Source of the DNA: an uncultured Thermoanaerobaculia bacterium
GTDB taxonomy: Bacteria; Acidobacteriota; Thermoanaerobaculia; Thermoanaerobaculales; Sulfomarinibacteraceae
NCBI GenBank assembly: GCA_964641415.1
Contig: CAZXMW010000001.1
Span: 66,545-130,544 of the forward strand
Direction of reading: 5' to 3'
DNA: 64,000 nt
Below, piece by piece: positions 3 through 48,055 of the stretch. A program made the position numbers and the translations under genes. The notes below the pieces were generated by a model. It was given only the letters and a program-made list of their open reading frames with translations. It made no database searches and was not told where the DNA came from. Every line of letters starts with the position of its first letter. Position 1 is the first letter of the stretch.

Positions 3-341
3 GGAGAGATCGCCGGGTGCACGTGGACCTGCACCGCGGGCCCCGGCTCGAGCTGCGCCGCTGCCGGCACGGCGCCCCCGTTCGGCGAGGCCGTGGACCT
101 GGGCGCTCCCGGAGTCGCGTTCTTCGAGCTCGCCTGCGCCCTGGACCCCTCGGCCGCCGGCGGCTCGGCGACCGTGGCCGCCTCGGTGTCGGCACCCTCG
201 AGCTTCATCGACCCGGATCTCGACAACAACCAGGCGGTGGCGACGACCGAGATTCCGATTCCGGTGCTCCTGCAGCGTTTCACCGTCGAGTCACGGTCAC
301 CGTCCGGCGCCTGCCCTCACGATCGTGGCGGGGCGGAGTGA
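3..341 (+). CDS. 3' end of a surface protein with the same DUF11-like repeat unit as the giant adhesins (5' end outside window)
   Basis: Frame 3 is open from the window edge to TGA 339-341. The translation GCTWTCTAGPGSSCAAAGT...VDLGAPGVAFFELACALDP...DPDLDNNQAVATTE matches the 'TW(T/S)C..G..C...G...VDLAPG.S.TF...DP...DN.A' unit repeated in the downstream giant proteins. Confidence 0.55.
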   Translation, partial: GEIAGCTWTCTAGPGSSCAAAGTAPPFGEAVDLGAPGVAFFELACALDPSAAGGSATVAASVSAPSSFIDPDLDNNQAVATTEIPIPVLLQRFTVESRSPSGACPHDRGGAE

Positions 342-411
342 GTGAGGGCACGAGAGCACGAGAGCACGACGTGGTCGATGCGATCTTGAGGCACCTCGAT
401 CGCATTTTCTC

Positions 412-427
412 GTGTGACCTGTATCAC
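412..427 (+). promoter_or_regulatory. CRP/FNR-family-like palindrome TGTGACCTGTATCACC (TGTGA-N6-TCAC), 138 nt upstream of adhesin gene 1
   Basis: 9/10 match to the TGTGA-N6-TCACA half-sites. The same core GTGACCTGTATCAC recurs at 12944-12957, at the identical distance from the second adhesin start. It is followed 12 nt later by a conserved GTGGAACC box (439-446). Confidence 0.4.
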
Positions 428-549
428 CCGACCCCGGTCGTGGAACCGACGAACAGTATGCGTCTGGATTCGACCGTTCGTCACCCACAGCATCAGCGCT
501 TCCGGAGGCTTGGATCCGGCGCTGAAGCCATCGCGCCGGGAGGCCCGTC

Positions 550-12768: not shown

Positions 12769-12795
12769 CCCCTCGACCCTCCCAACCCTCCTCCC

Positions 12796-12829
12796 GCGCC
12801 CGGGGCAGCCCCCCGGGCGCCCCTTTTTC
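12796..12829 (+). terminator. Rho-independent terminator candidate after adhesin 1
   Basis: Perfect 10-bp GC stem GCGCCCGGGG (12796-12805) / CCCCGGGCGC (12811-12820) with a 5-nt loop, followed by CCCTTTTTCC. It lies 28 nt after the stop codon. Confidence 0.7.
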
Positions 12830-12942
12830 CTGACCCGGCCGGCAACAAAAAGCTCCCGGCTGTCAGGCCAACGCCGTCCACGAATGACGGCCGCGGAACG
12901 CGAGGCCTCGGTGACCGGTCCGAGCGGGAACGGAAAAATCCC

Positions 12943-12958
12943 GGTGACCTGTATCACA
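12943..12958 (+). promoter_or_regulatory. CRP/FNR-family-like palindrome GGTGACCTGTATCACA upstream of adhesin gene 2
   Basis: 9/10 match to TGTGA-N6-TCACA with the identical spacer CCTGTA. It lies 138 nt upstream of ATG 13081, the same distance as site 412-427 from ATG 550. A GTGGAACC box at 12970-12977 has the same spacing. Confidence 0.4.
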
Positions 12959-13080
12959 ACCGGACGTCTGTGGAACCAATGACCGGAATGGAAGCGCTCA
13001 AGCCTCAAGCCTCATTGGTCGGATCGACGACAACCGTGATCCTGCCCACCATCGGAACAGCTTTCCAGCGGAGGTCATCC

Positions 13081-24786: not shown

Positions 24787-24803
24787 TGTCCGGATTCCGG
24801 TCA
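24787..24803 (+). promoter_or_regulatory. Putative enhancer (UAS) palindrome TGTCCGGATTCCGGTCA
   Basis: 16/17 identical to the site at 38206-38222. Its centre lies about 83 nt upstream of the predicted sigma-54 start site. Confidence 0.5.
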
Positions 24804-24851
24804 CCTGGGCACTCACGGCCCGTCATTCCATCCTCCTAATAACAAAGAACC

Positions 24852-24867
24852 TGGCACGTCTCTTGCC
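24852..24867 (+). promoter_or_regulatory. Sigma-54 (-24/-12) promoter TGGCACgtctcTTGCc
   Basis: Exact TGGCAC-N5-TTGC with GG at 24853-54 and GC at 24865-66 (canonical spacing). It lies 30 nt upstream of the ECF sigma ATG. Confidence 0.7.
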
Positions 24868-24896
24868 ATTGACCCGATGTGGAGAGGGAGGAAAGT

Positions 24897-25583
24897 ATGA
24901 TCGCCGATCCTGATGCGGCCTCCGTGAGTCACCGTTCGACGAACCCGACCTCGGCAACAGCCATGGGTGTCGAGGCTGACGACGATCAGCGCCGAGAGGC
25001 TGCCCTCACCGACGAGCAGGCACAGCGCCTTCTGTCGAGGTTCGCGACCGGAGACGAACGAGCGTTCGACCGTCTGGTTGCCGCCTTTTCGCCGCTCCTG
25101 TACAGCGTGTTCCTGCGCTCGTACCGTTTGTCGCTCGACGACGCCGACGACCTCTGCCAGGAGGTTCTTCTCCAGCTCACGATCAATGCCACCACGATCC
25201 GCAACGTCCGGCCGTGGCTTCTGGGGACAGCCATCAACCAGGCGCGGAAGCGAGTTCGGAAGCTCATCCGCGATCGAAGTTTGGCTACGATGTACAAGCA
25301 CGACTGTGAATCGACGGTTTCTCCCGATCTCGACGAAGAGCGAGACCTCGTCTGGCGCGCACTCGGTGGGCAGCGCCACGGCGACCGGCAGATCCTCACC
25401 ATGATCTACGTCGAGGAGCTCAGCTATCAGGAGACCGCGAATCGCCTGGGATGCCCCATCGGCTCGGTTGGACCCACTCGGTGCCGCGCCCTCGCGCGCC
25501 TGGAAAAATCCCTGTGCGAGCTCGACCCGTCGTTATCTTCCTCCGCCAGCCGGAACGTCGACAGCTCGTCCCGAGCGGCGTGA
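24897..25583 (+). CDS. ECF-type sigma-70 family RNA polymerase sigma factor (228 aa)
   Basis: ATG 24897 has GGGAGG at 24886-24891. Region 2 reads ERAFDRLVAAFSPLLYSVFLRSY.LSLDDADDLCQEVLLQL. Region 4 HTH reads ILTMIYVEELSYQETANRLGCPIGSVGPTRCRALARL. Confidence 0.85.
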   Translation: MIADPDAASVSHRSTNPTSATAMGVEADDDQRREAALTDEQAQRLLSRFATGDERAFDRLVAAFSPLLYSVFLRSYRLSLDDADDLCQEVLLQLTINATTIRNVRPWLLGTAINQARKRVRKLIRDRSLATMYKHDCESTVSPDLDEERDLVWRALGGQRHGDRQILTMIYVEELSYQETANRLGCPIGSVGPTRCRALARLEKSLCELDPSLSSSASRNVDSSSRAA

Positions 25584-25634
25584 CCATCCGGGTCCGCTGC
25601 AGTTCCCGGTTGCCTCTGACCCTGCGCGCTGACG

Positions 25635-25880
25635 TCAAGCCCCTGTTCCCCTCCAGAACGCGACGAGGTCGAGCTCGACCCTGTGGCCGGAAACCACGTC
25701 GTCGCCGTCGACGGCCGCGAGCTCCCGGGCTTCGACAACCCATGCCGTTTGCTGCAGCATCTCGGCTCGCCGTTCGCCCAGGCCGTCGCCGGCGCCGCGA
25801 GCTTTGAGGTCGCAGCAGTGGGAGTGGCAGTGACGCTGGCGCCACCCACGTGGCGGGCGTAGAATGAACAGCGTCATCAT
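25635..25880 (-). CDS. Hypothetical small Cys/His-rich protein (81 aa), weak call
   Basis: ATGATG start with GGAG 5 nt upstream, G/C-rich third codon positions, and no competing plus-strand gene. Contains RHCHSHCCD. No family recognised. Confidence 0.3.
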   Translation of the reverse strand: MMTLFILRPPRGWRQRHCHSHCCDLKARGAGDGLGERRAEMLQQTAWVVEARELAAVDGDDVVSGHRVELDLVAFWRGTGA

Positions 25881-25921
25881 CTGACTCCGGTCGCACCCGG
25901 AGCTGTCACGAGGAGGTCATC

Positions 25922-27061
25922 ATGCGAAGCACGAGAGCGATCGTCACCGTCGCGGTGCTCGGGATCCTGGTCCCGGCGCTTGCCCAGGGCGCCATCGTCC
26001 AGTACAACGACCGCGCCAGCTGGCTGGCCGCTATCGGCGGCGCCCCGGATGCCCAGGAGGACTTCCAGGGCTTCGCCGTCGACACCCCCTTCCGGGCTGC
26101 GGCGCTGGCCATGGGAATCGGCGCCATCGGCCAGGCCGGCCTCGACCAGGCGTTCCGCAACGAGGTCGACGCCCCGCCCCTCCAGTTCACCGACAACAAC
26201 GGAACTACCCATGCGTCGTGCTTCGTCAACTACCCGGACAGCGGCGCCGGGTCCGAGACCAACGTCGAGATCGTCTTCAGCCAGCCGGTCAGCGCCTGGG
26301 GCGGCGACTTCAACGGCGTGCTCGGCGGCGAGCTGCTGGCCATCGACGTCGACGGCCTCGATCGGGCCGTCATCGCCACCCTGCTGCCGGCGGCTGACAC
26401 CACGTTCCTCGGCTTCGTCGCCGACGCCGGCGAGCAGATCGACCTCGTCATCTTCCGCGCCCAGAACCAGAACCCGGGCGGCGGCGGCGAGGGCTTCGGC
26501 GCCGACAACCTCGCGGTGGTCTGGGCAACCGCCCCGGCCGGTGCAGCGGTATCCGGCGCCAAGACCGTCGACGGCAACTTCTGGCCCGGCGGCTCGATCA
26601 GCTACCAGGTCGTGCTGGCGAACGCCGGTCCCGGCGACCAGGGCGACAATCCCGGCGACGAGCTCGTTGACGCCCTGCCGCCCGAGATCGCCCTCACCGG
26701 CGCCAGCGCCTCGTCCGGTACCGCCGCCGCCGACCTCGGGACCAACACCGTGACCTGGAACGGGTCGATTCCCGCCGCCGGCTCGGTCACCGTCCAGATC
26801 ACCGCCGTGGTGGGTTCGCCGCCGGTCGGCACAGTGGTCTCCAACCAGGGCGCCATCAGCTTCGACGGCGACGGCAACGGCAGCAACGAGACCCAGGTCC
26901 CGACCGACGACCCAAGCCTGCCCGGCGCCGACGATCCGACCTCGTTCACGGTGGTGGAGCAGCAAGCGATCCCGACCCTGGGCACCCTCGGCCTGCTGAT
27001 GTTGGTGGGAGTTCTCGCCGGAACCGGGTTCGTGCTGCTGCGCTGGCGGCTGGCGGGCTGA
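25922..27061 (+). CDS. Secreted DUF11-like protein with IPTL-CTERM sorting signal (379 aa)
   Basis: AGGAGG lies upstream of ATG 25922. Signal peptide is ..VLGILVPALAQG. A DUF11-like unit is present (GSISYQVVLANAGPGDQGDNPGDELVDALPP...). The C-terminus AIPTLGTLGLLMLVGVLAGTGFVLLRWRLAG is IPTL, a hydrophobic helix and a basic tail. Confidence 0.85.
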   Translation: MRSTRAIVTVAVLGILVPALAQGAIVQYNDRASWLAAIGGAPDAQEDFQGFAVDTPFRAAALAMGIGAIGQAGLDQAFRNEVDAPPLQFTDNNGTTHASCFVNYPDSGAGSETNVEIVFSQPVSAWGGDFNGVLGGELLAIDVDGLDRAVIATLLPAADTTFLGFVADAGEQIDLVIFRAQNQNPGGGGEGFGADNLAVVWATAPAGAAVSGAKTVDGNFWPGGSISYQVVLANAGPGDQGDNPGDELVDALPPEIALTGASASSGTAAADLGTNTVTWNGSIPAAGSVTVQITAVVGSPPVGTVVSNQGAISFDGDGNGSNETQVPTDDPSLPGADDPTSFTVVEQQAIPTLGTLGLLMLVGVLAGTGFVLLRWRLAG

Positions 27062-35870: not shown

Positions 35871-36269
35871 TCAGGCGTCTGAGAGCAGGGCCGCAATCTC
35901 GGCGAGCAGGTCGTCGAGCTCGAACGGCTTGTAGATCACCCGGTCGGGCTTGGCGAAGTCCTGGAACAGCTGCTCGCGCTCGGGGTCGCTGCTCAGATCT
36001 CGGGCGGTGAGTAGGGCGATGCGGTTCGGCCTCTCGTAGACCCCCGCCGCCTCGTCCTCGCGAAGGATCCGGGCCACGCGATACCCGTTCTCCCTCGGCA
36101 TCATGACGTCGAGCAGGATGACGTCCGGTTTCGCGACCCGGGCCGCGCCGATGGCCTCGAAGCCGTTGGCGGCGGTGACCACCGAGTAGCCGGCGCGTTC
36201 CAGTGCGACGTGGGTGGTGTCGCGGATGTCCGGGTCGTCGTCGACCACGAGAATCGTCGCTTCGCTCAT
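35871..36269 (-). CDS. Single-domain CheY-like response regulator (132 aa)
   Basis: MSEATILVVDDDPDI...PDVILLDVMMP. Its ATG overlaps the upstream kinase stop (ATGA at 36266-36269). Confidence 0.9.
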   Translation of the reverse strand: MSEATILVVDDDPDIRDTTHVALERAGYSVVTAANGFEAIGAARVAKPDVILLDVMMPRENGYRVARILREDEAAGVYERPNRIALLTARDLSSDPEREQLFQDFAKPDRVIYKPFELDDLLAEIAALLSDA

Positions 36270-37951
36270 GCTTCCTCCTGGATTGTCTCGTCCCTCGTCA
36301 TGGCGCGGCTGATGAGTGCGCCGCCGTGGTCGCCATCCTCCGGGTAGCCCGCCGGCCCGAGGACCCGAGGCGGTGTCGCGCTCGAGCTTCTTGGGTCCTT
36401 GAAGCTACTGGCGATGGCCGCCGCGAGCTTGCGGCGGACCACCCACGCGCTCGCGAGGGGCGTGCTCAGGAGCACGGCGATCACCCGATCATGGGCAGGC
36501 TGCCGACAGACCACATCCAGGGATCGCGGCAACAGCCGGTCGACCATGTCGGCGACGGCGTCAAAACGCCCGCTGGTGCGAGCCGGCCGGGCGGCTTGCG
36601 CCGGATCGCCGCACTCGACGACGAGGATGGAAAAGTACGGGTGGGCCCGGAACGAGCTTCGGACTTGGTTTTCGAACGCGATCGTTTCGGTCGCCCGCTC
36701 CGACGGCCGGGGCAGGGCGAAGAAGAACCTGGAGCCCGCTCCGGGCTCGGACTCGACTTCGAGCTCGCTGCCGTGACCGCGGATCAGGTCGCGGCAGATA
36801 GTGAGACCGAGGCCGGTTCCCTTGGGTTTGTCGTCGGCCGTGCCGCCGGCCTGGTAGAAGGGCTCGAAGATCTTGACCTGGTCGGTGGTTTCGAGTCCGA
36901 CGCCGGTATCGCTGACCGCGACGGTGACCCCGTGATCACCCGCGGCCTCCGCGCTCACCGTCACGGCGCCGCCCTCGGGCGTCGCCTTGATGGCGTTGCT
37001 CACGAGGTTGACGACGACCTGCTCGATGCGGGCCGCATCCGCAAATGCCTCGAGCTCCCCGTCGACGCCGTCGACGCTCAGCTCGACGCCCGACGCCGCC
37101 GCCTGGGGACCGAACGGGTCGACGATCTCGGCCAGGAAGCTCTGAAGCCGGACCGGTCCTGGAGAGATGGTCAGTGAGCCCGACTCGGCCTTCGCCATGT
37201 CGAGGAGGTCGGAGACGATGAGCTGGAGACGGTCTGCGTTGCGCCGGATCATCTGCAGAAATCGCGCGTTGGCCTCGGGCTCGGCGACGGGGTCGATGAG
37301 CGAGGTCGCGTTCTTGATCGCCGTGAGCGGGCTCTTGAGCTCGTGGGACACGGTGGAGACGAACTTCGACTTGATGTCGCTCTGCCGCCGCAGCTCCTCG
37401 TTGGCCGCCGCGAGGGCGCGCCGGTTGCGCTCGAGGCTCTCGATGATCGCCTGCTCCTTGCTCACCCGGTGGCGCTCGCGACGCAGCCGGTCGACCAGGT
37501 AGCCGTAGAAGATCGCCACCGAGAACAGGAACGGCAGGCGGATCAGGGTCTGGGTCGTCACGACCTCGTCGACGCCGCCGGTGCGCGCCACGAGCACGAC
37601 GTAGGCGAAGCAGACCACGGCCACGCCGAGGGCGATGAGGCGGATGTTCTCGCCGACGCCGGCGAGAAAGAGCACGAAGAAGTAGAGATAGAAGAACTCC
37701 GAGGTGAAGCGGCCGGTCGCGAGCAGGGCGATGGTGATCCACGCCGTGTCGACGACGACGGTGACGGCAATGAGCCAGGGCGAGTGCAGCACCCGCACCG
37801 GCAGGCCGAGGGCGCAGACGTTCGACAGGATCACCACCACCAACAGAACCATCAGCGGCGCCGGCACCGACCGCGACCCGAACTCGGCGATGAGCAGGTA
37901 GCTGGTCGCGATGATGAGGGTGAAGCGCAGCAGGATGAACGAGCGGTCCAT
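36266..37951 (-). CDS. Membrane histidine kinase with C-terminal degenerate GGDEF-fold extension (561 aa from ATG 37951; ORF opens at 38050)
   Basis: About 6 hydrophobic helices. H-box is SHELKSPLTAI; ATP boxes are NLVSNAIKAT, DTGVGL, GTGLGLTI. A tail of about 170 aa follows the GGDEF topology (YFSILVVECGD...LDVVCRQPAHDRVIAVLLST...) with PAHDR in place of GGDEF. Confidence 0.85.
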   Translation of the reverse strand: MDRSFILLRFTLIIATSYLLIAEFGSRSVPAPLMVLLVVVILSNVCALGLPVRVLHSPWLIAVTVVVDTAWITIALLATGRFTSEFFYLYFFVLFLAGVGENIRLIALGVAVVCFAYVVLVARTGGVDEVVTTQTLIRLPFLFSVAIFYGYLVDRLRRERHRVSKEQAIIESLERNRRALAAANEELRRQSDIKSKFVSTVSHELKSPLTAIKNATSLIDPVAEPEANARFLQMIRRNADRLQLIVSDLLDMAKAESGSLTISPGPVRLQSFLAEIVDPFGPQAAASGVELSVDGVDGELEAFADAARIEQVVVNLVSNAIKATPEGGAVTVSAEAAGDHGVTVAVSDTGVGLETTDQVKIFEPFYQAGGTADDKPKGTGLGLTICRDLIRGHGSELEVESEPGAGSRFFFALPRPSERATETIAFENQVRSSFRAHPYFSILVVECGDPAQAARPARTSGRFDAVADMVDRLLPRSLDVVCRQPAHDRVIAVLLSTPLASAWVVRRKLAAAIASSFKDPRSSSATPPRVLGPAGYPEDGDHGGALISRAMTRDETIQEEA

Positions 37952-38128
37952 GATCGGCGAGCCCGAGCCCGCGACCTGGTCCGCGACGGGGCTGTCCGGT
38001 AATCTGCTCACGCGCGCTCCAAACCTGGAAGCTCGATCCGGCCACTGCACTTCATTCTACCCGAAGCTCCACCCGGAACGACGTTTCCGGCTCGGCGCCA
38101 GAGTCAGAGGGCCGCGTCGTCCGGGCGG

Positions 38129-38145
38129 CGTTCGGTTTCCGGACA
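38129..38145 (+). promoter_or_regulatory. Second, weaker UAS-like site CGTTCGGTTTCCGGACA
   Basis: 14/17 match to TGTCCGGATTCCGGACA; lies 77 bp upstream of the perfect site. Confidence 0.35.
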
Positions 38146-38205: not shown

Positions 38206-38222
38206 TGTCCGGATTCCGGACA
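38206..38222 (+). promoter_or_regulatory. Perfect 8-1-8 palindrome TGTCCGGATTCCGGACA (putative enhancer for the sigma-54 activator)
   Basis: Perfect inverted repeat. Its centre lies about 173 nt upstream of the predicted sigma-54 start site. Close variants occur at 24787 and 44916. Confidence 0.55.
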
Positions 38223-38360: not shown

Positions 38361-38376
38361 TGGCATGGACCTTGCT
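38361..38376 (+). promoter_or_regulatory. Sigma-54 (-24/-12) promoter TGGCATggaccTTGCT
   Basis: GG at 38362-63 and GC at 38374-75 with canonical spacing. It lies upstream of the fimbrial operon, giving a leader of about 150 nt. Confidence 0.7.
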
Positions 38377-38538
38377 GTCATGTTCGGGCATGAAGTGTGT
38401 CGGTTCCCTCCGCCGCGGGCACAACCCCCTCCGCCGAGCTCGACAGGGCGAGGTCGAGAGTGGCGTCGCAGCCCGTTCGTCAACCCAGAAAACCACGCCG
38501 GCAACCCCGGCAGGACCTTCGTTCAAGGGAGAAGAGAA

Positions 38539-39126
38539 ATGAAGAAGATCGTTGTTGCGTGTTTGCTCGTTGTGGGTGCGTTCCTGGTCGCGCCGGGCTC
38601 GGCCTCGGCCCAGGCGACCGGTGACGTGGACGTCTCGATCACCGTCAACGGGTTCGTGATCCTGTACTACTACGACACCGTGGCGATCACCATCCCCTCC
38701 AACGTGATGGCCCAGGCTCTCGCGGGCGCCGACGCCAACGGCGGCGTCGGGAGCCCTCTCGGGTCCATGGCCGCGACGTCGCTCGGCGCGGGCGTTCTGA
38801 CTGCGCCCAACGCGACCGCTCCCGGTGGCACCGCGCCCGGCAGCGACGCCACCCTGACCATTCAGAACGCGTGGTCGATCCGCGGCCTCACCGCCAACGG
38901 CGTCGATGTCGCCGTGCTCGACAACGGCAACGACCTGACCCACGCGAGCGCGGGCACGATCGAAGTCGACCAGGCTCGCTGCGCCGGTTCCTGCACCGAC
39001 CTCGACCCCACGCTCGGGTCGGTGCTGAGCGGCGGCGTCGAGCTCGACCTGGACTTCGCGGGCGTCACAGGCCCCGGGACCTTCTCGAGCGCGGCCACGT
39101 ACACCATCACGGCGACCGTGCTGTAG
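38539..39126 (+). CDS. Secreted fimbrial-subunit-like protein A (195 aa)
   Basis: AAGGGAGAAG RBS precedes ATG 38539. Signal peptide is MKKIVVACLLVVGAFLVAPGSASA. The protein is Gly/Ala/Thr-rich and beta-type, has one Cys pair (CAGSC), and is first gene of a chaperone-usher-like operon. Confidence 0.7.
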   Translation: MKKIVVACLLVVGAFLVAPGSASAQATGDVDVSITVNGFVILYYYDTVAITIPSNVMAQALAGADANGGVGSPLGSMAATSLGAGVLTAPNATAPGGTAPGSDATLTIQNAWSIRGLTANGVDVAVLDNGNDLTHASAGTIEVDQARCAGSCTDLDPTLGSVLSGGVELDLDFAGVTGPGTFSSAATYTITATVL

Positions 39127-39148
39127 AAGGTGTCTGCGAGGTCGAGCC

Positions 39149-39778
39149 ATGAAGCCGACCGGCTTTGATCGCGACCGGGACCGGGTGCTGCGCCCGGTCC
39201 CGGTGGTCGTGGTTGCCGCCGTCGCCACAGTCTTTTTCTTGGCGGCGGCGGCGCCGGCCGAGGCACAATCGCCGCGCGGCGCCGACCTCCGGGCCGGCTC
39301 GAGCGAGCTCTGGATCGAACGGCACGCCCGGCTCGAGCCCGTGACGTCGGTCGACTTCGGCGGCGGCGCCGGCGCCCGGCCCGAGCAAGCGCCGGAGTCT
39401 CTCGCCACCTCCCTCGGCGGCCGGGGCCGCCTGACGACCGGGTTCGCGGCGCCCCCGGTCGGACCCTCGACCTTTGTCGTCCGGCGCGAGGTCGACGGCC
39501 TCTGGCGGGTTCGCAGCCGTGGCCCGGGCGCGGCGGTCGCGACGCGGGTCGACTATGATTTCATCGGGGCCAACGGTGAGCCCGGCGTGCTGAGCCACGT
39601 CACCGACGACCGGTCGGTGATCCCGGTACGGGTCGTCGAGCTGCCGCAGCGGGTCAGGGAACGCCCGGGCGGCGGGGCCACCGTGGAAGGAGGGGTCATG
39701 CTGGAGATGGACTTGGCTCGGGCTCGGGAGGCGGGCGGCTACGGCGGGACCTTGCTGGTCACCGTCGTCCAGCTGTGA
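39149..39778 (+). CDS. Secreted fimbrial-subunit-like protein B (209 aa)
   Basis: Signal-anchor reads VVVVAAVATVFFLAAAAPAEAQ. The C-terminal strand GGYGGTLLVTVVQL resembles the terminal beta-strand of pilus subunits. It starts 22 nt after the previous gene. Confidence 0.6.
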   Translation: MKPTGFDRDRDRVLRPVPVVVVAAVATVFFLAAAAPAEAQSPRGADLRAGSSELWIERHARLEPVTSVDFGGGAGARPEQAPESLATSLGGRGRLTTGFAAPPVGPSTFVVRREVDGLWRVRSRGPGAAVATRVDYDFIGANGEPGVLSHVTDDRSVIPVRVVELPQRVRERPGGGATVEGGVMLEMDLARAREAGGYGGTLLVTVVQL

Positions 39779-39785
39779 GCCGGCC

Positions 39786-40766
39786 GTGATTCTGCTGACA
39801 CATCAGAGGTCTCCGGTGCACGCGGCGAGCCCTCCAACCTGCGCTCGCCGGGTTCTTCTGTCCGTGGTGTTGATGCTCGCTGCGGCGCCGGCTCTCGCCC
39901 AGATCGGCGTCAGCCCGCCGCGCACCGAGTTCAGTCTCGACGACGGTCGGGCGACCCACACCATCCGGGTCTTCAACGTCGGCGGCGAGACCGTCGAGGT
40001 CGCGGTGGAGATCAGCCACTGGGATCTGGACGAGGACAACCGGGTCCGGATCATCCCGCCCACGGAGCAGTCGCTCGACCAGTGGCTGGTCGTCAACCCG
40101 CTGCGCTTCACCCTGGCGCCGGGCGGCGCCCAGGCGGTTCGTCTCGCCGCCCGGCCCCGGGTCGAGCCTGAGCCGGGCGAGCACCGGGCGCTGCTGTACT
40201 TTCGGCAGATCCCCCCGACGCACGAGGATGGCTCGGTCGACGGCACCAAGGTCCTGTTTCGGCTCGGGACCTCGGTGATCGGCCTCGCGCAACCGGTCGT
40301 CCGGGAAGCGGTGGTTCATGAGATGACCGTCGAAGCATCGGGGATCCGGGTCGACATCGAGAGCCTCGGCAACACCCATGTGCGCCTCGCCGGTCAATGG
40401 GCGGTGTGGCCGGCCGAGGTCTACCCGGGGCGAGAGAAGACCGGGCCCATCGAGGGCCTGGAAACAGATGAAGAGGTTGCGCTGCCGGACGGCGTCGTCG
40501 CGGCCCGGATGCTGAGCTCGCTGCCGGTCCTTCCGGGAACGCGGCGGGTGATCCCGACCGGCTTCGGCCTGCCCCTGGAGCCCGGCGCCTACGTCGTCGA
40601 CGTGCACGGCGAGGTCGCCGGGGTCGACGTCGGCGGCGCGTTCGAGATGACCGTGGAGCCGCCGCCGGACGACGAGCCGATGTCGACTCCCGCGCCCGTC
40701 CCGACGCCGGCTCCGACGCTACCGCCGGCAGACGAGCCGGAGGCTGCGCCCACCGACGGCGGGTAG
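39786..40766 (+). CDS. PapD-like periplasmic pilus chaperone with Pro/Ala-rich tail (326 aa)
   Basis: A signal peptide is followed by IGVSPPRTEFSLDDGRATHTIRVFNVGGETVEVAVEISHW...LVVNPLRFTLAPGGAQAVRLAARP, the typical chaperone N-domain pattern. The tail reads PPPDDEPMSTPAPVPTPAPTLPPADEPEAAP. Confidence 0.7.
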   Translation: MILLTHQRSPVHAASPPTCARRVLLSVVLMLAAAPALAQIGVSPPRTEFSLDDGRATHTIRVFNVGGETVEVAVEISHWDLDEDNRVRIIPPTEQSLDQWLVVNPLRFTLAPGGAQAVRLAARPRVEPEPGEHRALLYFRQIPPTHEDGSVDGTKVLFRLGTSVIGLAQPVVREAVVHEMTVEASGIRVDIESLGNTHVRLAGQWAVWPAEVYPGREKTGPIEGLETDEEVALPDGVVAARMLSSLPVLPGTRRVIPTGFGLPLEPGAYVVDVHGEVAGVDVGGAFEMTVEPPPDDEPMSTPAPVPTPAPTLPPADEPEAAPTDGG

Positions 40767-40776
40767 GGCCCGGTTC

Positions 40777-43365
40777 ATGGGGGGCTCCGTGCGGGCGAGA
40801 ACGGCGCCGGTTGCCGCGCTGCTTGCGGTCACTGTGCTCGCAGCGCTCCCGGCGTCGGCGGCGTCCATCGCCGCGACTCTCCTCGCCGACATCGCGCCGG
40901 CCGAGACCGGCATCCTGGTCGGCGTGATCGTCAACGGCGTCGAGGTCGGCTCGGTCGAGGTCGTGCGACGGGACGGCGAGCTGCTGCTGCCGCTGGTCGA
41001 GGTCGTCGAGCTCATCGGCGCCGAGCTCGAGGAGGCCGACGGCGCCGTGGCCGTGTCGACGCCGATTGGGCGCGTGACGCTCGCGCTTGACGAGGTCGTC
41101 CGCGTCGACGGCGTGCTGATGGCGCCGTTCGAACTCTTCGAGGCGCGGCTCGCGACCGGTGTCGCCTTCGACCGCCAGGAGTTCGCCCTGCTCTTCGACG
41201 TGCCGTGGTCGCGGCCGGGCGAGGCGCCGGGAGCGGCGGCAGCCGCCGAGCTCGGCCCCGCTGATTTCACCCCGCCGGCAGCGACCCTGGCCACGCTGCA
41301 GGCCGACCTCCGGGCCGCCCGCGAGTCCGGGCGGGACGTCTACCAGACCTCGACGGTGGCCGAGGGCCGGCTCGCCTCGGGCTGGTGGCGGGTCCGTTAC
41401 GAAGACGACCTCGACACCTCTCATCGCTTCGAGGAGTACTCGTGGCTGCGGACCAGCGGCCGCCGCCAGCTCCTGCTCGGCCACCAACGGCTGCGGCTGC
41501 ACCCGATCTTCGACAGTCTCGAGCTCACCGGCGCCCAGCTCGCCTACACCAACGTCGACCTCGACTCCTTCAGCCGGTCGCGGGAGGCGCGCGAGTTGCT
41601 GTCGCGGCGCATGCAGTCGGTGACCACGGTGCGGGGCTTCGGGCCGCCGGGCGGGCTTGCCGAAATTCGAATCGACGGCGTCCCCCTCGACCGCCGGACC
41701 ATCGCGCTGAACGGCACCTACGAGTTCACCCAGGTACTGCTGCCGTCGCGCCAGGCGACCCGGATCGAGGTCTACGTCTACGACCGCTCGAACCTGCTCA
41801 TCCCGGTGGCGATCGTCGACGAGACCCGGCGCGCCTTCGACCTGCTGATGGAGGACGGCGCGGTCGTCCACCAGGGCGGGCTCGGCAGCCAGGGCAACCT
41901 GGCGGACGATCAGCGGGAGGTCGCCGGCGACGGCGAGCTCGCGGGCTTCTACCAGCTCCGCTACGGCGTCAGCGACCGGCTGACGGTGGAGGCCGCCGCC
42001 CAGCGGGTCGCCGGTCGTGACCAGCTCCAGGCCGGGGTCGTCGCCCGCCTCGGCGCGGGCTTGGTCGCCTCGCTCGGCGCCGTCGCCTCCGACGAGGCCC
42101 TCGGCTACGACCTCGAGCTCAGCGGCCAGTGGGACCGGTGGTGGCTGCAGGGGAGGTCCTACGAGACCGAGGAGGGCTTTCGGGTGGCGAGCCCCGACCG
42201 CGAGTTCGACCACTATCTCGAGCTCGGGCTCGACGCGGGCCGCCGCCTCGACCTGTCCCTGATCGCCCGCCGCCGGGACGGTCCGACCGGCGAGGCCGAC
42301 TACCTCCTGCCGGCGGTCAGCTGGCGGCCGGTCGATTCGATGTCGGTGCGGATCCGACCCGACCTCGACGGCCGCTACATGGGCAACCTGTGGTGGCGGA
42401 TCGACCGTCGAAGCCGGCTCGGCGTCGACGTCCTCGAGGACCTGTCGACCAGCGCCGAGCTGTCCCGCGACGTCGGCGCAAGGAGTACAGTTCGTCTCGG
42501 CGCCGACCTTCGCTCCGGTCTCCCCGACCGCTACTCGGCGACGTACGAGACCGACCTGGATCTCGCTGCCAGGACGACGCTTTCGGCCGGCGCCCTGGTC
42601 GCCGACGGCGAGCTCGGCTACGAGGCCCGGGCGACCATCGGCATCGATCCCGGTTTTCTGGTCAACGTCGAGATCCGCGACGACCCCTCGCTGCGCGGCT
42701 TCGGCGAGGACTCGGGCCGGCGCTACTTCGTCGGGATGTCCATCGACCTCGGCTTCGCCGGTGGGCGCATCATCCCGGCCCACCGCGGCGCGGTCCGCGA
42801 CGACCGGGGCGCCATCGCCGGGGTCGTCCGGGCGGCCGAGGACAGCGCCGGCAGGCGCCGCCTCGACAACGTGCTGGTGCTCGTCGACGGCGCCCGCGGC
42901 GGCCGCACCGACGCCAGCGGGACCTTCTTCGCCGGCCGCCTCGCCGCCGGCCTGCACGTGGTCGAGCTCGACAGCGAGAACCTGCCCATCGAGCTGGTGC
43001 CCGACCGCAGCCGGTGGCTCGTGGAGGTGGCGCCGGGCGCCGTGACCAGAGTCGACTTCACGGTCCATGCCGAGTACGGCATCGCCGGCCGGGTCACCGA
43101 TGCCGCGGGCCGGGCGCTGCCGGGGTGGACGGTGGCGGTGCTCGACTCAGCCGGCCGGGTGGTCGGCCGGGCCACGACCGACCGCTTCGGGCTGTACCGC
43201 GTCGACGGCATGCCGACCGGCGTCTACCAGGTCGGGGTGCTCGACGATCCCACGGCCGAGACGCCCGAGACCCTGGCGACCCGGGAGATCGAGATCGTCG
43301 ACGACTTCCTGTTCGGTCAGGACCTGATGCTGCCGTTCGAGGTTCCGGCGCCTCCTGAGAGCTGA
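40777..43365 (+). CDS. Outer-membrane usher-like protein with two C-terminal carboxypeptidase-regulatory-like beta-sandwich units (862 aa)
   Basis: Signal peptide present. The usher-like N-domain reads VGVIVNGVEVGSVEVVRRDGELLLPLVEVVELIG. A long Tyr/Arg/Asp-rich beta-barrel-like middle follows. C-terminal units read GAIAGVVRAAEDSAGRR..GTFFAGRLAAGLHVVEL and GIAGRVTDAAGRALPGWTVAVLDSAGRVVGRATTDRFGLYRVDGMPTGVYQV. Confidence 0.65.
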   Translation: MGGSVRARTAPVAALLAVTVLAALPASAASIAATLLADIAPAETGILVGVIVNGVEVGSVEVVRRDGELLLPLVEVVELIGAELEEADGAVAVSTPIGRVTLALDEVVRVDGVLMAPFELFEARLATGVAFDRQEFALLFDVPWSRPGEAPGAAAAAELGPADFTPPAATLATLQADLRAARESGRDVYQTSTVAEGRLASGWWRVRYEDDLDTSHRFEEYSWLRTSGRRQLLLGHQRLRLHPIFDSLELTGAQLAYTNVDLDSFSRSREARELLSRRMQSVTTVRGFGPPGGLAEIRIDGVPLDRRTIALNGTYEFTQVLLPSRQATRIEVYVYDRSNLLIPVAIVDETRRAFDLLMEDGAVVHQGGLGSQGNLADDQREVAGDGELAGFYQLRYGVSDRLTVEAAAQRVAGRDQLQAGVVARLGAGLVASLGAVASDEALGYDLELSGQWDRWWLQGRSYETEEGFRVASPDREFDHYLELGLDAGRRLDLSLIARRRDGPTGEADYLLPAVSWRPVDSMSVRIRPDLDGRYMGNLWWRIDRRSRLGVDVLEDLSTSAELSRDVGARSTVRLGADLRSGLPDRYSATYETDLDLAARTTLSAGALVADGELGYEARATIGIDPGFLVNVEIRDDPSLRGFGEDSGRRYFVGMSIDLGFAGGRIIPAHRGAVRDDRGAIAGVVRAAEDSAGRRRLDNVLVLVDGARGGRTDASGTFFAGRLAAGLHVVELDSENLPIELVPDRSRWLVEVAPGAVTRVDFTVHAEYGIAGRVTDAAGRALPGWTVAVLDSAGRVVGRATTDRFGLYRVDGMPTGVYQVGVLDDPTAETPETLATREIEIVDDFLFGQDLMLPFEVPAPPES

Positions 43366-43384: not shown

Positions 43385-44752
43385 TCACCGGAGCCCGAGC
43401 TGGTCCAGCTTGGTGTACAGGGTCGACCGTGAAATTCCGAGGATCTTGGAAGTGCGCTGGATGTTGCTGCCGGTGGCCTCGAGGACCCGGCCGATGTGCT
43501 CCGCCTCGACCTCGGCCAGGGTCCGGTCGGTGGCCCAGTCCGAGGCTCGGCGCGGCCGCAGGGTGTCGGGCAGGTGGGCGGGGTTGAGGGTGGCGCCGTC
43601 GCCGGCCCGGATCAGGGCCGACTCGACCACGTTGCGCAGCTCGCGCGCGTTGCCGGGCCACGGGTACTTGAGCAGCAGCTCCTGGGCCCGCGCCGAGATT
43701 CGGGTGACCCGCCGCCGGACCACGGGATTGAGCTCGCCGATGAAGTGGTGGGCGAGCTCGAGAACGTCTTCGTCGCGATCCCGCAGCGGCGGGATGTCGA
43801 TCCGGAAGACGTTGAAGCGGTAGTACAGATCGGCTCGAAAACGCCCCGAAGCGACCTCCTCGCCGAGGTCGCTGTGGCTGGCGACGATGAGGCGGACGTC
43901 GGTGGAGATCTCCCGGACCCCGCCGACTCTCCGGAAGGTCTGGCTCTCCACCGCCTTGAGCAGCTTGCTCTGGGCCTGCAGGTTGAGCTCGGCGATCTCG
44001 TCGAGAAACACGGTCCCGCCGCGGGCGATCTCGAGCAGGCCGGGCTTGCGGTCGGTGGCGCTCGTGAACGCGCCCTTCTCGTGCCCGAACAGCTCCGACT
44101 CCACCAGCTGCTCGGGCAGGCTCGCGCAGTTGACCACCGTCAGCGGGCCCGTGGCCCGCCGCGAAAGCCGGTGAATGCCGCGGGCGACGATGTCCTTGCC
44201 GGTTCCGGTCTCGCCGTGGAGGACGACCGCCGAGTCGGTCTCGGCGACCGCCGCGACCAGCTCGCGCACCCCGGCGATGGCGTCGCTTCCGCCGACCAGC
44301 TCGGACAGCACGCCGTTGTGCGCGGCCCGCGACGTGTTCGCAGCCTGGTAGATCGAGACCCGGGACAGCGCCCGGTGGCGCTCGAGGGTCTGACCGACGG
44401 CGCTGAGCAGCACATCGAACGACACCGGTTTCGGCAGGAAGTTGTCGGCGCCGCGGAGCATCGCCTCGACCACGGTCCGGGTGTCGGTCTGCCCGGTGAG
44501 GATGATCACCGAGATCAGCTCGTCGCTGTCCTTGATCGTCGGCAGCACGTCGATGCCGTCCTGGTCGGGCAGGCCGAGGTCGAGCAGGACCAGCTCCGGA
44601 TCGTGGCGGGCGAGGTGGTCGAGAGCGGCCTGCGCCGCCCCCACGGTTGTCACCGAGTAGCCCTCGGCTGTCAGCCATTCGGACAGCATCTCGGCGGTGC
44701 GCGGGTCGTCCTCGACGACGAGGACGCGACCGGTGGCTGGTTGTGACGCCAT
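43385..44752 (-). CDS. NtrC-family sigma-54-dependent response regulator: REC, AAA+, Fis-HTH (455 aa from ATG 44752; ORF opens at 44875)
   Basis: Receiver reads RVLVVEDDPRTAEML...LVLLDLGLPDQDG. Walker A is GETGTGK. The sigma-54 contact loop reads GHEKGAFTSA, a GAFTGA variant. The C-terminal HTH reads NIQRTSKILGISRSTLYTKLDQLGL. Confidence 0.9.
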   Translation of the reverse strand: MASQPATGRVLVVEDDPRTAEMLSEWLTAEGYSVTTVGAAQAALDHLARHDPELVLLDLGLPDQDGIDVLPTIKDSDELISVIILTGQTDTRTVVEAMLRGADNFLPKPVSFDVLLSAVGQTLERHRALSRVSIYQAANTSRAAHNGVLSELVGGSDAIAGVRELVAAVAETDSAVVLHGETGTGKDIVARGIHRLSRRATGPLTVVNCASLPEQLVESELFGHEKGAFTSATDRKPGLLEIARGGTVFLDEIAELNLQAQSKLLKAVESQTFRRVGGVREISTDVRLIVASHSDLGEEVASGRFRADLYYRFNVFRIDIPPLRDRDEDVLELAHHFIGELNPVVRRRVTRISARAQELLLKYPWPGNARELRNVVESALIRAGDGATLNPAHLPDTLRPRRASDWATDRTLAEVEAEHIGRVLEATGSNIQRTSKILGISRSTLYTKLDQLGLR

Positions 44753-44812
44753 GTCGGTCTCAATTGTACCTGATGTCGCCGGGTTGTCACAGGCGTCCGA
44801 AGCCGGGACGCC

Positions 44813-44829
44813 TGGCCGGAATCCGGACA
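44813..44829 (+). promoter_or_regulatory. UAS-like site TGGCCGGAATCCGGACA, with an extra CCGGACA half-site at 44834-44840
   Basis: 15/17 match to TGTCCGGATTCCGGACA. It lies 61 nt upstream of the activator gene start, a position compatible with autoregulation. Confidence 0.4.
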
Positions 44830-44915
44830 GTCCCCGGACATCCGCCCCGACGCCGCCCAGGACGCCCGACAGCACGGGCGAGGGCCGACTCCGGCTCCTG
44901 CCGCGCCGGCGAGAG

Positions 44916-45010: not shown

Positions 45011-45026
45011 TGGCATCGGACTTGCT
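45011..45026 (+). promoter_or_regulatory. Sigma-54 (-24/-12) promoter TGGCATcggacTTGCT
   Basis: GG at 45012-13 and GC at 45024-25 with canonical spacing. GGAGG (45043-47) and ATG 45053 follow. Confidence 0.7.
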
Positions 45027-45052: not shown

Positions 45053-45457
45053 ATGATCCGCCGACCTGCGACGTCCCAGACCGAGCCCGCCACCCGCGCG
45101 GCCCTCCTGGGCCTGTGCTCCCTCGCCCTCCCGATCGCCCTCCTGGTCAGCCCACCCCCCGTCGCAGGCGCGTCCGGATCGGTGTCCGTCACGATTCGTG
45201 TCGAGGTCGACCCGGTCGATCTCCACGGCGGTGGTCTCCTCGATGGCGCGCGCGCAGGCGCCGACGAGGTCGCCGCCCTGCTCGCCCCGGTCCTACGCCG
45301 ATCGTTGGCGGCGCGCTATGCGCCTTCCGAGATCGACCGGATCGTCGACTCCGTCGCCGACGACTGCGTCGTCGTGCGAGACGGCGAGGTCGTTGCGCGG
45401 ACATCGACCGATCCGGCGTCGCTGAGCCGCGACGGCGAGAGTGTGTTCATCCTCTGA
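45053..45457 (+). CDS. Small secreted protein of unknown function (134 aa)
   Basis: ATG 45053 follows GGAGG. Signal peptide is ...ALLGLCSLALPIALLVSPPPVAGASG. It is the first gene behind the sigma-54 promoter. No family recognised. Confidence 0.6.
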   Translation: MIRRPATSQTEPATRAALLGLCSLALPIALLVSPPPVAGASGSVSVTIRVEVDPVDLHGGGLLDGARAGADEVAALLAPVLRRSLAARYAPSEIDRIVDSVADDCVVVRDGEVVARTSTDPASLSRDGESVFIL

Positions 45458-45544: not shown

Positions 45545-48055
45545 ATGAGCATGCCGGTTCGAAGCAACAAGCTCGCCATGCCGCCCGAGCAGGCGATGCG
45601 CGCGCTGCGGCGCGGCGAGTTCGAGTCCAGCGATGAGCGCGACTGGCTGCTCGACGTGGTCAGCCAGGCGCAGGTCTCCGAGCCGCGCGAGTTTCTCTGG
45701 ATGCTGTTCACGCCCGACCGTTCGCTGCGCGAAGCGGGCTCGGAGCTGGCCCGCGGTTGCCGCGACGTGACGCTGGTGGATCGCTTCGTCGAGCACTGCC
45801 GGCGCGCGCCGGACGCCGCGGTTCGTGCCGCCTGCGCGGGCCTGTTCGCGGCTGCTGTGCCGGGTACCGAGCAACGCCTGCTCGAGCTGGCGTCGTGCGA
45901 CGACCCGATTGTCGCCGGTCTGGTCAACCGCATCGCCGCAGAGGCGCCGCCGTCGAGGGCGCTCGAACCTCTGTACTGGCAGCTCGCACGCTCCGGCGCC
46001 ACCGCCGGCCAGCGCGTCGTCTTCATCGAGCGGCTCGCGGCCCTGGGCCTCGACCAGGGCGGCCTGGACCGGTGGCGGGAGCTCGCCGACGACGAGGAGA
46101 CGCCGGTGCGCGAGGCGGCGCTGAGCGTGCTCGCGGCGACGGCCGCAGAGAGCTGTGTGGAGCTCCTGATCGCGGCGTTGCCGGAGGTCGGATACGGGGT
46201 CCAGCAGCACCTCATCGCCGGTATCGCGAGCGTCGCCGTCGCCCGGGGTCCCGAGTTCGCCGACCGCGTCCTGCCCCTGATGGCATCCGGCGATCCCGGG
46301 ACCCGGACCGCCGTGCTCAAGATCCTGCTGCAGATGGGGGACCGGAGGGAGCTGGTCAAACGATATCTGAACTTCTCGCGCACGCTCGCGGGCTGGATCC
46401 GGGACCGCGCGCTCGAGTCGATGCGGGAGTTCGGCCCCGATCTCGCCGAGCCGACCATCGAGCTGCTCGGCGATCCCGACGAGTCGGTGCGGGGCGCGGC
46501 GGTCCTGGTTGCGAGCTCCTTCGAGGACCCGAGGGTCGTGCCGGCCACCCTGCCGTTGCTCGAGGACCCGGACTGGTGGGTGAGGATCACCGCCGCCGAA
46601 AGCCTGGGCCGGATCGGCGACCCCCGGGCGGTTGCCGCCCTGTGCGAGGTGCTCGACGAGCCCGAGACGCGGTGGGCGGCAGTGGAGGCCCTCGGGCGGA
46701 TCGGCGATGCCCGGGCGCTGCCGGCGCTCGGCAAGCTGCTCAAGGACCCCGCCGCCGAGGTCCGCATCGAGGTCCTGCTCGCGCTGCGCAACTTCCGGCA
46801 CCCGCGCATCCTCAAGGTGATCACCGGGGTCGCGGCCAACGATCCCGACCGAGTCGTGCGGGCGCGCGCCCTGGAGATTGCCGAGGAGCTCGCGACCCGC
46901 GACGAGACCGAGCTCGACGACCACAAGGCGCTGAAGGCCCGGGCGCACCGGCTCGGGGTGTCCGACGGCGAGCCGAGGCTCCACGGCCTGCTCGTGACGA
47001 CCCGGGAGCGGGAGGCATCGGACCTCCACCTGTCGGTCGGATGCGAGCCCACGATCAGGCTCGGCGCCGATCTCATCGGGCTCGGCGGGCCGCCCATGAC
47101 CGCCGCCGACACCGAGATCCTGGTTCGCGGCATCCTCACCGAGGACCAGCTGTCTCGATTGCGGCGGGACCGCCAGATCGACCTCTGCTACTACATCCCC
47201 CGGGCCGGCCGCTACCGGGCCAACGTCTTCGTGGACCACAAGGGGACCAATGCCGTCTTCCGGGTCATCGCCGAAAAGCCGCCGACGATCACCGACGTCG
47301 GCCTGCCCTCGCACGTCGCGGACATCGCATCCCACCACCAGGGGCTGGTGCTCGTGTGCGGTCCGGCAGGCAGCGGCAAGACCACCACCCTCGCCGCCCT
47401 GGTCAACCTGTTCAACGAGACCAGGCACCTGCACGTGATCACCCTCGAGGATCCGGTGGAGTTCGTGCATCCGTTCAAGAACTGTCTCGTCAACCAGCGC
47501 GAGGTCGGCAGCCACACGCGGTCCTTCGCCCGGGCGCTGCGGGCGGCCCTGCGCGAGGATCCCGACCTGATCATGATCGGCGACCTGCGCGACACCGAGG
47601 CGATGGCTCTCGCCCTGACCGCGGCCGAGACCGGCCACATCGTCTTCGGCACCCTCAACTCGGTGGACGCGGTCAAGGCGGTGGGCCGCGTCATCTCGTC
47701 GTTTCCGGCCAGCCGGCAGGCGCAGATCCGCGCCGCCCTCGCCGACTCGCTGCGGCTCGTGATCGCGCAGCGGCTGCTGCCAGGGACCGAACCCGGGGCG
47801 CGGGTCGCCTGCTTCGAGATCCTCAAGGGCACGCTGTCGGTGAGCCACCTGATTCGCGAGGACAAGCTCGTCCAGCTGACCTCGGCGATGCAGGTGGGAC
47901 GGAGCAAGGGCATGCAGCTGTTCGACGACGCCCTCAAAGACCTGGTCCGCCGTGAGCGGATCGCGCCCGAGACCGCCTACCTCGCCGCCAACGACAAGGA
48001 CGCCTTCGAGCCGCTGGTGTCGGAGGAGTTCCTCGCGAGCCGGACCTTCCTGTGA
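45545..48055 (+). CDS. HEAT-repeat domain fused to a PilT-family hexameric ATPase (836 aa)
   Basis: The N-terminal 470 aa or so carry PBS-lyase/HEAT-like repeats (DPDWWVRITAAESLGRIGDPRAVAALCEVLDEP..WAAVEALGRIGDARALPALGKLLKDPAAEVR). The C-terminal PilT core reads EASDLHLSVGCEPTIRL, Walker A GPAGSGKTT, HVITLEDPVEFVH, REVGSHT.SFARALRAALREDPDLIMIGDLRD, GHIVFGTLNS. Confidence 0.85.
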   Translation: MSMPVRSNKLAMPPEQAMRALRRGEFESSDERDWLLDVVSQAQVSEPREFLWMLFTPDRSLREAGSELARGCRDVTLVDRFVEHCRRAPDAAVRAACAGLFAAAVPGTEQRLLELASCDDPIVAGLVNRIAAEAPPSRALEPLYWQLARSGATAGQRVVFIERLAALGLDQGGLDRWRELADDEETPVREAALSVLAATAAESCVELLIAALPEVGYGVQQHLIAGIASVAVARGPEFADRVLPLMASGDPGTRTAVLKILLQMGDRRELVKRYLNFSRTLAGWIRDRALESMREFGPDLAEPTIELLGDPDESVRGAAVLVASSFEDPRVVPATLPLLEDPDWWVRITAAESLGRIGDPRAVAALCEVLDEPETRWAAVEALGRIGDARALPALGKLLKDPAAEVRIEVLLALRNFRHPRILKVITGVAANDPDRVVRARALEIAEELATRDETELDDHKALKARAHRLGVSDGEPRLHGLLVTTREREASDLHLSVGCEPTIRLGADLIGLGGPPMTAADTEILVRGILTEDQLSRLRRDRQIDLCYYIPRAGRYRANVFVDHKGTNAVFRVIAEKPPTITDVGLPSHVADIASHHQGLVLVCGPAGSGKTTTLAALVNLFNETRHLHVITLEDPVEFVHPFKNCLVNQREVGSHTRSFARALRAALREDPDLIMIGDLRDTEAMALALTAAETGHIVFGTLNSVDAVKAVGRVISSFPASRQAQIRAALADSLRLVIAQRLLPGTEPGARVACFEILKGTLSVSHLIREDKLVQLTSAMQVGRSKGMQLFDDALKDLVRRERIAPETAYLAANDKDAFEPLVSEEFLASRTFL

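Follow-up and report, generated by a model that had tools for sequence, protein, structure and literature searches.

A probable, highly diverged chaperone-usher-type assembly system encoded by an uncultured Thermoanaerobaculia bacterium

Archaic sigma-class pili (Csu of Acinetobacter baumannii and CupE of Pseudomonas aeruginosa) are encoded by genes in the order subunit(s), chaperone and usher. The subunit CupE1 has a 13-residue donor strand plus a GAG linker (PMC10104325). Outside the Proteobacteria, a system of chaperone-usher type has been described in Synechocystis PCC 6803 (CccS/CccP/Slr0019; PMC4390875; bioRxiv 10.1101/130278), and its components have the canonical Pfam domains SCPU (spore-coat protein U), PapD_N and Usher (PMC4390875). 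Four co-directional genes (g1 to g4) in the archaic order were found at 38539-43365 on the plus strand of a 64,000-nucleotide stretch of DNA (the window; positions 66,545 to 130,544 of contig CAZXMW010000001.1) from an uncultured Thermoanaerobaculia bacterium of the Acidobacteriota. This locus probably encodes a highly diverged chaperone-usher-type assembly system. The product of g3 is homologous to chaperones and that of g4 to ushers, and the comparisons below support both a chaperone-usher mechanism and a class nearer to the archaic than to the classical one. Neither subunit is an SCPU protein, however, nor is the usher recognized by the Pfam model, and the cluster groups with uncharacterized loci that encode DUF4402 proteins. 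It is thus an undescribed variant of an already known type of machine, and the known mechanism is unchanged.

The four genes are separated by 22, 7 and 10 nt. Since all four are conserved in the same order in other genomes, they are not a chance pattern of open reading frames (ORFs); the tight spacing reported in the initial annotation was present as claimed, as were the sequence strings quoted there. The first gene, g1 (38539-39126), encodes a secreted, acidic protein of 195 aa, rich in Thr, Gly and Ala, which is a candidate major fibre subunit. It is followed by g2 (39149-39778), encoding a secreted, basic protein of 209 aa and a candidate second (minor or tip) subunit, by g3 (39786-40766), encoding a periplasmic PapD-like two-domain chaperone of 326 aa with a Pro/Ala-rich tail, and by g4 (40777-43365), encoding an outer-membrane usher homologue of 862 aa.

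The protein encoded by g4 starts with a signal-peptide-like segment. Its sole match to a domain model was to CarboxypepD_reg (residues 769-821), with none to Usher, and a profile search found PF00577 nowhere in the genome. Relatives of g4 (47 at cluster level) are named only 'carboxypeptidase regulatory-like domain protein' or 'hypothetical'. The AlphaFold2 model, built from an alignment of 38 family members, had a mean predicted local distance difference test score (pLDDT) of 84.6 and a predicted template modelling score (pTM) of 0.68. Ushers such as PapC and FimD consist of an N-terminal domain, a 24-strand barrel that has its plug between strands 6 and 7, and a pair of C-terminal domains. 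The predicted order of domains in g4 matches this layout. An N-terminal mixed domain (residues 43-141; 40903-41199) is followed by six long β-strands, modelled as barrel strands 1 to 6 (residues 173-258; 41293-41550), a plug-like insert in the form of a six-strand sandwich (residues 285-350; 41629-41826) and the remaining barrel of about 18-20 long strands (residues 363-661; 41863-42759). Two β-sandwiches were modelled at the C-terminus (residues 677-765, 42805-43071, and residues 767-840, 43075-43296), the second of which contains the CarboxypepD_reg match, in agreement with the carboxypeptidase-regulatory sandwiches proposed from the first inspection of the sequence.

When the g4 model was compared with the Protein Data Bank (PDB) using Foldseek, the best 18 matches were all to FimD or PapC, with E-values of 6e-26 to 1e-12 and alignments of up to about 900 columns. 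These were followed by domains of Gram-positive surface proteins (E 7e-10 and weaker, TM about 0.12), while the next barrels were TonB-dependent transporters (from E 6e-6, TM about 0.2). Profile comparison with hhalign, in which one target sequence each was used for the sigma-class and the classical system, gave 96.5% (E 9e-10) for g4 against a PF00577 usher from an uncultured gammaproteobacterium (locus L025), over 363 columns comprising the distal barrel and both C-terminal domains. Against FimD of Escherichia coli the value was 0.7%. The description of g4 as usher-like is therefore upheld by fold and by profile, at the level of a predicted structure.

CarboxypepD_reg domains are common in SusC/TonB-type receptors. 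The presence of one in g4, together with TonB-dependent transporters among the weaker Foldseek matches (E about 1e-5, TM about 0.2), would be compatible with a transport barrel, either TonB-dependent-receptor-like or another porin with CarboxypepD_reg, that is functionally unrelated to g1-g3. This is very improbable. TonB-dependent transporters rank 20 orders of magnitude below the ushers, which align with g4 along its full length; CarboxypepD_reg lies at the C-terminus of g4, where it aligns with C-terminal domains of ushers; and in other phyla g1-g3 always precede g4. A TonB-dependent receptor was rejected on the Foldseek ranking and the order of domains.

The chaperone, whose sequence includes IGVSPPRTEF...THTIRVFNVGGETVEVAVEISHW, scored 24.4 bits on PapD_N (cutoff 23), and 32 of 37 relatives also matched this model (best E 1.8e-8). 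Its family comprises more than 143 clusters, several of which, in Nostoc, Scytonema, Tolypothrix and Ca. Vecturithrix, are annotated as 'fimbrial biogenesis chaperone'. With hhalign, g3 aligned with the canonical sigma-class chaperone of L025 at 93.7% (E 2e-7) over 227 columns that span both domains, and with FimC of E. coli at 1.4%. A search of PDB sequences with the g3 profile gave no match. It had been suggested at the outset that the third gene encodes a PapD-like chaperone, and these data agree. The lack of any PapD or usher match, or a structure incompatible with a barrel, had been named as findings that would tell against the proposal; instead, g3 matches PapD_N and the model of g4 has usher topology.

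Two details of g3 concern its ends. From the sequence, translation may truly start at a GTG at 39816, which is preceded by an AGAGG Shine-Dalgarno-like sequence, rather than at 39786. The Pro/Ala-rich tail (about 40 aa, residues about 283-326), picked out as unusual in the initial annotation, was short or absent in the relatives read. Because it is unconserved even in close relatives, it is probably a lineage-specific disordered extension and not a functional novelty.

Both g1 and g2 occupy the place of pilin genes, ahead of the chaperone gene, and encode mature proteins of about 170 aa each. A strong ribosome-binding site precedes g1 (AAGGGAGAAGAGAA-ATG), and its product has a classical signal peptide ending ASA|QA; g2 also starts with a signal-peptide-like segment. 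Neither protein had any match in Pfam or NCBIfam. A word-seeded search found only seven close relatives of g1, and positional homologues from distant loci also align with it. All of these homologues have a signal peptide. In g1 the N-terminal segment ATGDVDVSITV, with alternating hydrophobic residues, is followed by an NG/PS/SG turn and a second hydrophobic strand, a pattern kept across 14 homologues, and the C-terminus falls at one fixed column after ...G.Y....Y.ITA (...YTITA). For g2, 157 family representatives were found at 50% identity, and the conserved C-terminal half closes with EGGV.L.LDL...AG.Y.GTL.VTV (...GGYGGTLLVTVVQL in g2 itself), again with a fixed C-terminus, so that the C-terminal column is fixed in all 54 aligned homologues (14 of g1 and 40 of g2). 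An hhalign match between g1 and g2 over their C-terminal halves (70%, E 4e-5) shows them to be distant paralogues. Their place in the operon, export signals, size and strand patterns, together with the fixed C-terminus, lead us to infer that both are incomplete Ig-like folds joined by donor-strand exchange. That two secreted, subunit-like proteins are encoded here is thus borne out as regards signal peptides, size, position and paralogy, and they are best called candidate subunits.

The candidate subunits do not resemble Fim/Pap pilins, as had been noted by eye, and the Pfam and SCPU searches bear this out. SCPU (PF05229) was matched at E<=1 by none of the 14 g1 and none of the 40 g2 homologues, and comparison of a single SCPU protein with g1 and g2 gave no domain-level similarity. 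DUF4402 (PF14352), the other family proposed for checking, was matched by none of the 14 g1 homologues and weakly (E >= 0.06) by three of the 40 g2 homologues. With a DUF4402 profile, hhalign gave 50% for g2 over the last 25 columns only, which correspond to an AG.Y.GT..VTV hairpin; the value for g1 (2%) was not significant. In a control, DUF4402 and SCPU aligned with each other at 24%, also only over the terminal hairpin, the same one that is shared with g2. Because DUF4402 and SCPU likewise share nothing but this hairpin, a lack of wider similarity is normal among subunit families of systems of this kind and does not count against a pilin role for g1 and g2.

How far, then, does the system belong with the archaic class, to which its layout had been assigned as closest? 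Judged against single targets, the usher and chaperone are much closer to sigma-class components (96.5%/93.7%) than to FimD/FimC (0.7%/1.4%), and by profile they are homologous to the sigma-class pair. As in CupE1, a short alternating strand at the N-terminus of g1 leads into a Gly/Pro turn; g1 also has a C-terminal G.Y..T.T.T strand. Its opening TG.V.V-type segment and its C-terminal G.Y..T..T motif resemble those of SCPU proteins. The cluster could on these grounds be a very diverged archaic sigma-class member (Csu/CupE/spore-coat-protein-U) without separate status. We consider this unlikely, since no subunit homologue (0/54) matches PF05229, no family member matches PF00577, and a canonical SCPU-PapD-Usher operon adjoins the cluster in L025. 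In the L025 region 183-13373, that operon (SCPU, PapD_N, Usher+PapC_C and SCPU) lies directly upstream of the four-gene cluster, and because the two stand side by side they are distinct paralogous systems. Also unlike Csu and CupE, the subunits number just two, each of a single domain, a two-domain tip adhesin is lacking, and g4 is invisible to PF00577, PapC_N and PapC_C, its last domain scoring as CarboxypepD_reg. The proximity of chaperone and usher to the archaic class therefore holds, whereas membership of Csu/SCPU does not. In L025 the four-gene cluster is followed by genes for a 645-aa vWA-TerF-like protein and a 277-aa protein.

The nearest relatives of the g1-g4 system are uncharacterized DUF4402-type loci. 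The chaperone encoded beside a DUF4402 gene in a genome of the same class is the best match found for g3 (hhalign 97.6%, E 3e-12, 33% identity over 101 columns of the N-terminal domain) and fits it better than the sigma-class chaperone does, which is a further argument against simple archaic membership. The DUF4402 locus in this genome (G080; loci L034 and L062) encodes a DUF4402 subunit, a PapD_N chaperone (24.1 bits) and a protein of 868 aa, which ends in CarboxypepD_reg without an Usher match and is matched by the g4 profile at 95.7% over both C-terminal domains. The two kinds of locus thus have the same kind of chaperone and usher but different subunits, as g1 and g2 are not DUF4402 proteins, although the C-terminal hairpin motif is common to g2 and DUF4402-type subunits. 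A literature search found no paper mentioning DUF4402, or linking sigma-54 or Acidobacteria to a chaperone-usher system.

Classical pili of E. coli (FimC/FimD and PapD/PapC) share the overall usher fold and order of domains with g4, as judged by Foldseek, and the PapD_N domain with g3, but profile similarity to FimD and FimC is lacking, there are no subunits of the Fimbrial family, and sigma-54 control is predicted here. Cyanobacteria also carry the g1-g4 family, in Microcoleus (L009) and as Nostoc-type chaperones. Although CccS/CccP/Slr0019 is likewise a chaperone-usher-type system outside the Proteobacteria, its description sets it apart from the Microcoleus copy, which has no SCPU or Usher match.

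The order g1-g2-g3-g4, with similar protein sizes, was found in five phylum-level groups (Acidobacteriota, Ca. Vecturithrix, Cyanobacteria, Nitrospinota and Gammaproteobacteria) when neighbourhoods were compared one locus at a time. Four-gene clusters are present in other Thermoanaerobaculia/Thermoanaerobaculales assemblies (L001, L003, L026 and L027), another Acidobacteriota metagenome-assembled genome (MAG; L010), Ca. Vecturithrix (L008), the cyanobacterium Microcoleus (L009), Dokdonella (L013), a Nitrospinota MAG (L016) and the uncultured gammaproteobacterium (L025). In Sulfurovum and Desulfobacterales assemblies the usher homologue was found alone. Closer to the source organism, full-length g4 homologues were detected in only seven of 41 related genomes. 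All 11 genomes of the same genus (G001-G011) lack them, whereas they are present in three further genera of its family and in one genus from a second family of that order. The locus is therefore accessory and patchy, and this spread suggests gain by transfer or repeated loss.

Some of these loci differ in their surroundings or in the usher itself. In two of the Thermoanaerobaculia assemblies (L001, 10580-14232, and L026, 10625-14277) the cluster is preceded by sucCD, and an exact sigma-54 element is absent. There, a gene for an 807-aa PD40/Tricorn_N-like protein overlaps the usher gene by 4 nt and is followed by a gene for a 410-aa DUF11-like protein; both followers are missing from the window. 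The usher homologue of the other Acidobacteriota MAG (L010, 6893-10540) has 1215 aa, including a long extension at the C-terminus in which three almost identical repeats occur (…RLYEYVTVIEWVEG.PPRVRDQITVVASFPPAPELAETAPAAITPAPPVRP…).

Sigma-54 dependence of the operon is well supported by sequence features. A near-consensus -24/-12 element, TGGCATGGACCTTGCT, with its -24 GG and -12 GC correctly spaced, lies on the plus strand at 38361-38376, 163 nt upstream of the g1 ATG, and no sigma-70-like promoter was found on this strand upstream of g1. In seven relatives from Acidobacteriota, Ca. Vecturithrix and Gammaproteobacteria (L003, L005, L008, L013, L014/L025, L018 and L027), the g1 homologue is closely preceded on its coding strand by an exact TGGCAY-N5-TTGC element; by rough estimate, about one such match would be expected by chance across all loci together. 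The genome contains rpoN (442 bits, contig C4). The predicted start site is separated from the g1 ATG by a 5' leader of about 150 nt (38377-38538, plus strand, as read from the sequence), for which a riboswitch was rejected because no Rfam family came near threshold. In L003, the closest named relative (a Thermoanaerobaculales MAG), a run of N at about 4390-4500 masks part of the intergenic region between the kinase gene and g1, and the sigma-54 element at 4634 is visible.

Two candidate activator-binding sites were found further upstream. The proximal one is a perfect palindrome, TGTCCGGATTCCGGACA (38206-38222), located 155 bp upstream of the -24 element, and the distal one, CGTTCGGTTTCCGGACA (38129-38145), is degenerate, with two mismatches to the palindrome, and lies 232 bp upstream. 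Both distances fall within the 80-250 bp or so expected of upstream activator sites. Copies with one mismatch or fewer occur three times in the window, against 0.05 expected, and only five times in the whole 4.39-Mb assembly, these three included. The spacing of the two sites is conserved in the close relative L027, whose sigma-54 element (5596) has sites of the GTCCG...CGGAC type 155 bp (5441) and 233 bp (5363) upstream. The other sites in the window (24787 and 44813/44916) are also upstream of sigma-54-like elements.

A gene for a sigma-54 activator of the NtrC type (REC - AAA+ - HTH_8; 43385-44875, minus strand) is convergent with g4. Its product matches Sigma54_activat (E 7e-62), Response_reg and HTH_8, and an orthologue with 71% identity is likewise convergent with g4 in L027. 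The listed ORF begins with GTG at 44875; the true start is probably the ATG at 44752, which stands behind a sigma-70-like promoter (GTGACA-16-TACAAT, 44790-44763). The palindromes at 44813 and 44916 flank the upstream region of the activator gene itself. From these features it is likely that the adjacent activator controls the operon through the palindromes. Sigma-54 control, as originally proposed, is supported by the conserved -24/-12 element, the palindromes, and the presence of rpoN and an adjacent activator. Divergent from g1 on the minus strand are genes for a membrane histidine kinase (HisKA, HATPase_c; 36266-38050) and a single-domain receiver (Response_reg; 35871-36269), and the close relatives L003 and L027 have this pair upstream of g1 as well. 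It is a guess that this histidine kinase is the sensor for the activator.

The third palindrome copy in the window, TGTCCGGATTCCGGTCA (24787), is 65 bp upstream of a sigma-54-like element, TGGCACGTCTCTTGCC (24852). Located 3' of this element are genes for a sigma factor of the extracytoplasmic function (ECF) type (24879-25583) and for a secreted DUF11 protein (25922-27061), whose C-terminus, IPTLGTLGLLMLVGVLAGTGFVLLRWRLAG, resembles an IPTL/PEP-CTERM-type sorting tail. The region 24787-27061 may belong to a small surface regulon under the same activator. A relationship of this DUF11 protein to the DUF11-like gene product encoded after g4 in L001 was rejected, as BLASTP gave no similarity. On the other side, the palindromes at 44813 and 44916 and a sigma-54-like element at 45011 precede a gene for a small secreted protein (about 45053-45457). 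Behind the 45011 element also lies a gene for an 836-aa protein (45545-48055), an unusual fusion of HEAT repeats with a PilT/T2SSE-type ATPase, which is possibly co-regulated with the fibre operon. Elsewhere in the window, pairs of sigma-54-like patterns at 12226/23005 and 12442/23221 were dismissed as promoters, because they are identical copies 10,779 bp apart in a large direct repeat of two giant adhesin genes.

Several results weigh against reading g1-g4 as a sigma-54-controlled chaperone-usher system. HMMER searches for Usher (PF00577), PapC_N and PapC_C at E<=1 found no match in any of the 38 g4 family members, so that the usher profile suggested for checking detects neither g4 nor its relatives. 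Alignment of the subunits with a ten-sequence SCPU profile gave hhalign values of 0.2% and 4%, which also speak against archaic membership. In PDB sequence searches the g1 profile had no match and the g2 profile only a chance match (E 1.1), while the AlphaFold2 model of g1 from 14 homologues (pLDDT 44.8) was unusable and the result of Foldseek on it was noise. The candidate cleft residues of g3, R46 and R159, taken as equivalents of R8 and K112 of PapD, are only partly conserved (R46 is R in 22 of 37 relatives and K in two; R159 is R or K in 31 of 37), and alignment with PapD sets R46 opposite R6 rather than R8. In the activator, the loop that contacts sigma-54 reads GAFTSA instead of GAFTGA. 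To these may be added the absence of the two-domain tip adhesin from the locus and that of full-length g4 homologues from genomes of the same genus.

On the chaperone-usher reading, which we still regard as probable, g1 and g2 would be exported by Sec and then captured and folded in the periplasm by g3, presumably by donor-strand complementation. The chaperone-subunit complexes would dock on the g4 usher, with its N-terminal domain, plugged β-barrel and two C-terminal sandwiches, which would polymerize the subunits by donor-strand exchange and extrude a thin surface fibre. In such a fibre g1 is likely to be the major subunit and g2 a minor or tip subunit. Transcription would start at the sigma-54 promoter (38361-38376), activated by the adjacent NtrC-type response regulator (43385-44875) from the palindromes 155 and 232 bp upstream, and the signal would probably come from the neighbouring histidine kinase. 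Formation of a fibre, binding of the regulator to the palindromes and the source of the signal are the steps that we infer.

Chaperone-usher systems can also make polymers other than pili, such as the protein U spore coat of Myxococcus and capsule-like antigens. That non-fimbrial structures may result is also noted in a review (PMC4390875). Since no tip adhesin gene is present, the chaperone-usher-like pair might export g1 and g2 as surface or coat material that is not fibrous, be it a layer resembling a capsule or a sheet, or monomeric surface proteins. The fixed C-terminus and the N-terminal alternating strand fit polymerization either way, as a thin fibre or as an amorphous polymer. We regard export of non-fibrous material as improbable, and a thin fibre assembled by g3 and g4 remains the preferred product.

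A broader interpretation is offered tentatively, and we would not be surprised to see it fail. The g1-g4 and DUF4402-type loci may together form an unrecognized, phylum-spanning class of chaperone-usher systems (Acidobacteriota, Cyanobacteria, Ca. Vecturithrix, Nitrospinota, Campylobacterota and Proteobacteria). Its ushers, with terminal transthyretin-like CarboxypepD_reg domains, would be invisible to current usher models, its subunits would form a new superfamily of pilins, in which nothing but the last β-hairpin of archaic pilins is retained, and a sigma-54 promoter would be the ancestral mode of control.

The pore and the subunits of the g1-g4 system escape standard annotation. Surveys of chaperone-usher systems lean on Pfam models for usher, PapD and pilin, and this family escapes two of the three; whole phyla therefore seem to be without such fibres. 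If the family were recognized, at least three protein families that lack annotation (g1, g2 and the usher type of g4) would gain a likely function, and the classification of chaperone-usher systems would be extended beyond the archaic class. The locus would also offer a simple system, with two subunits and a defined sigma-54 switch, in which fibre assembly and surface attachment may be studied in environmental bacteria.

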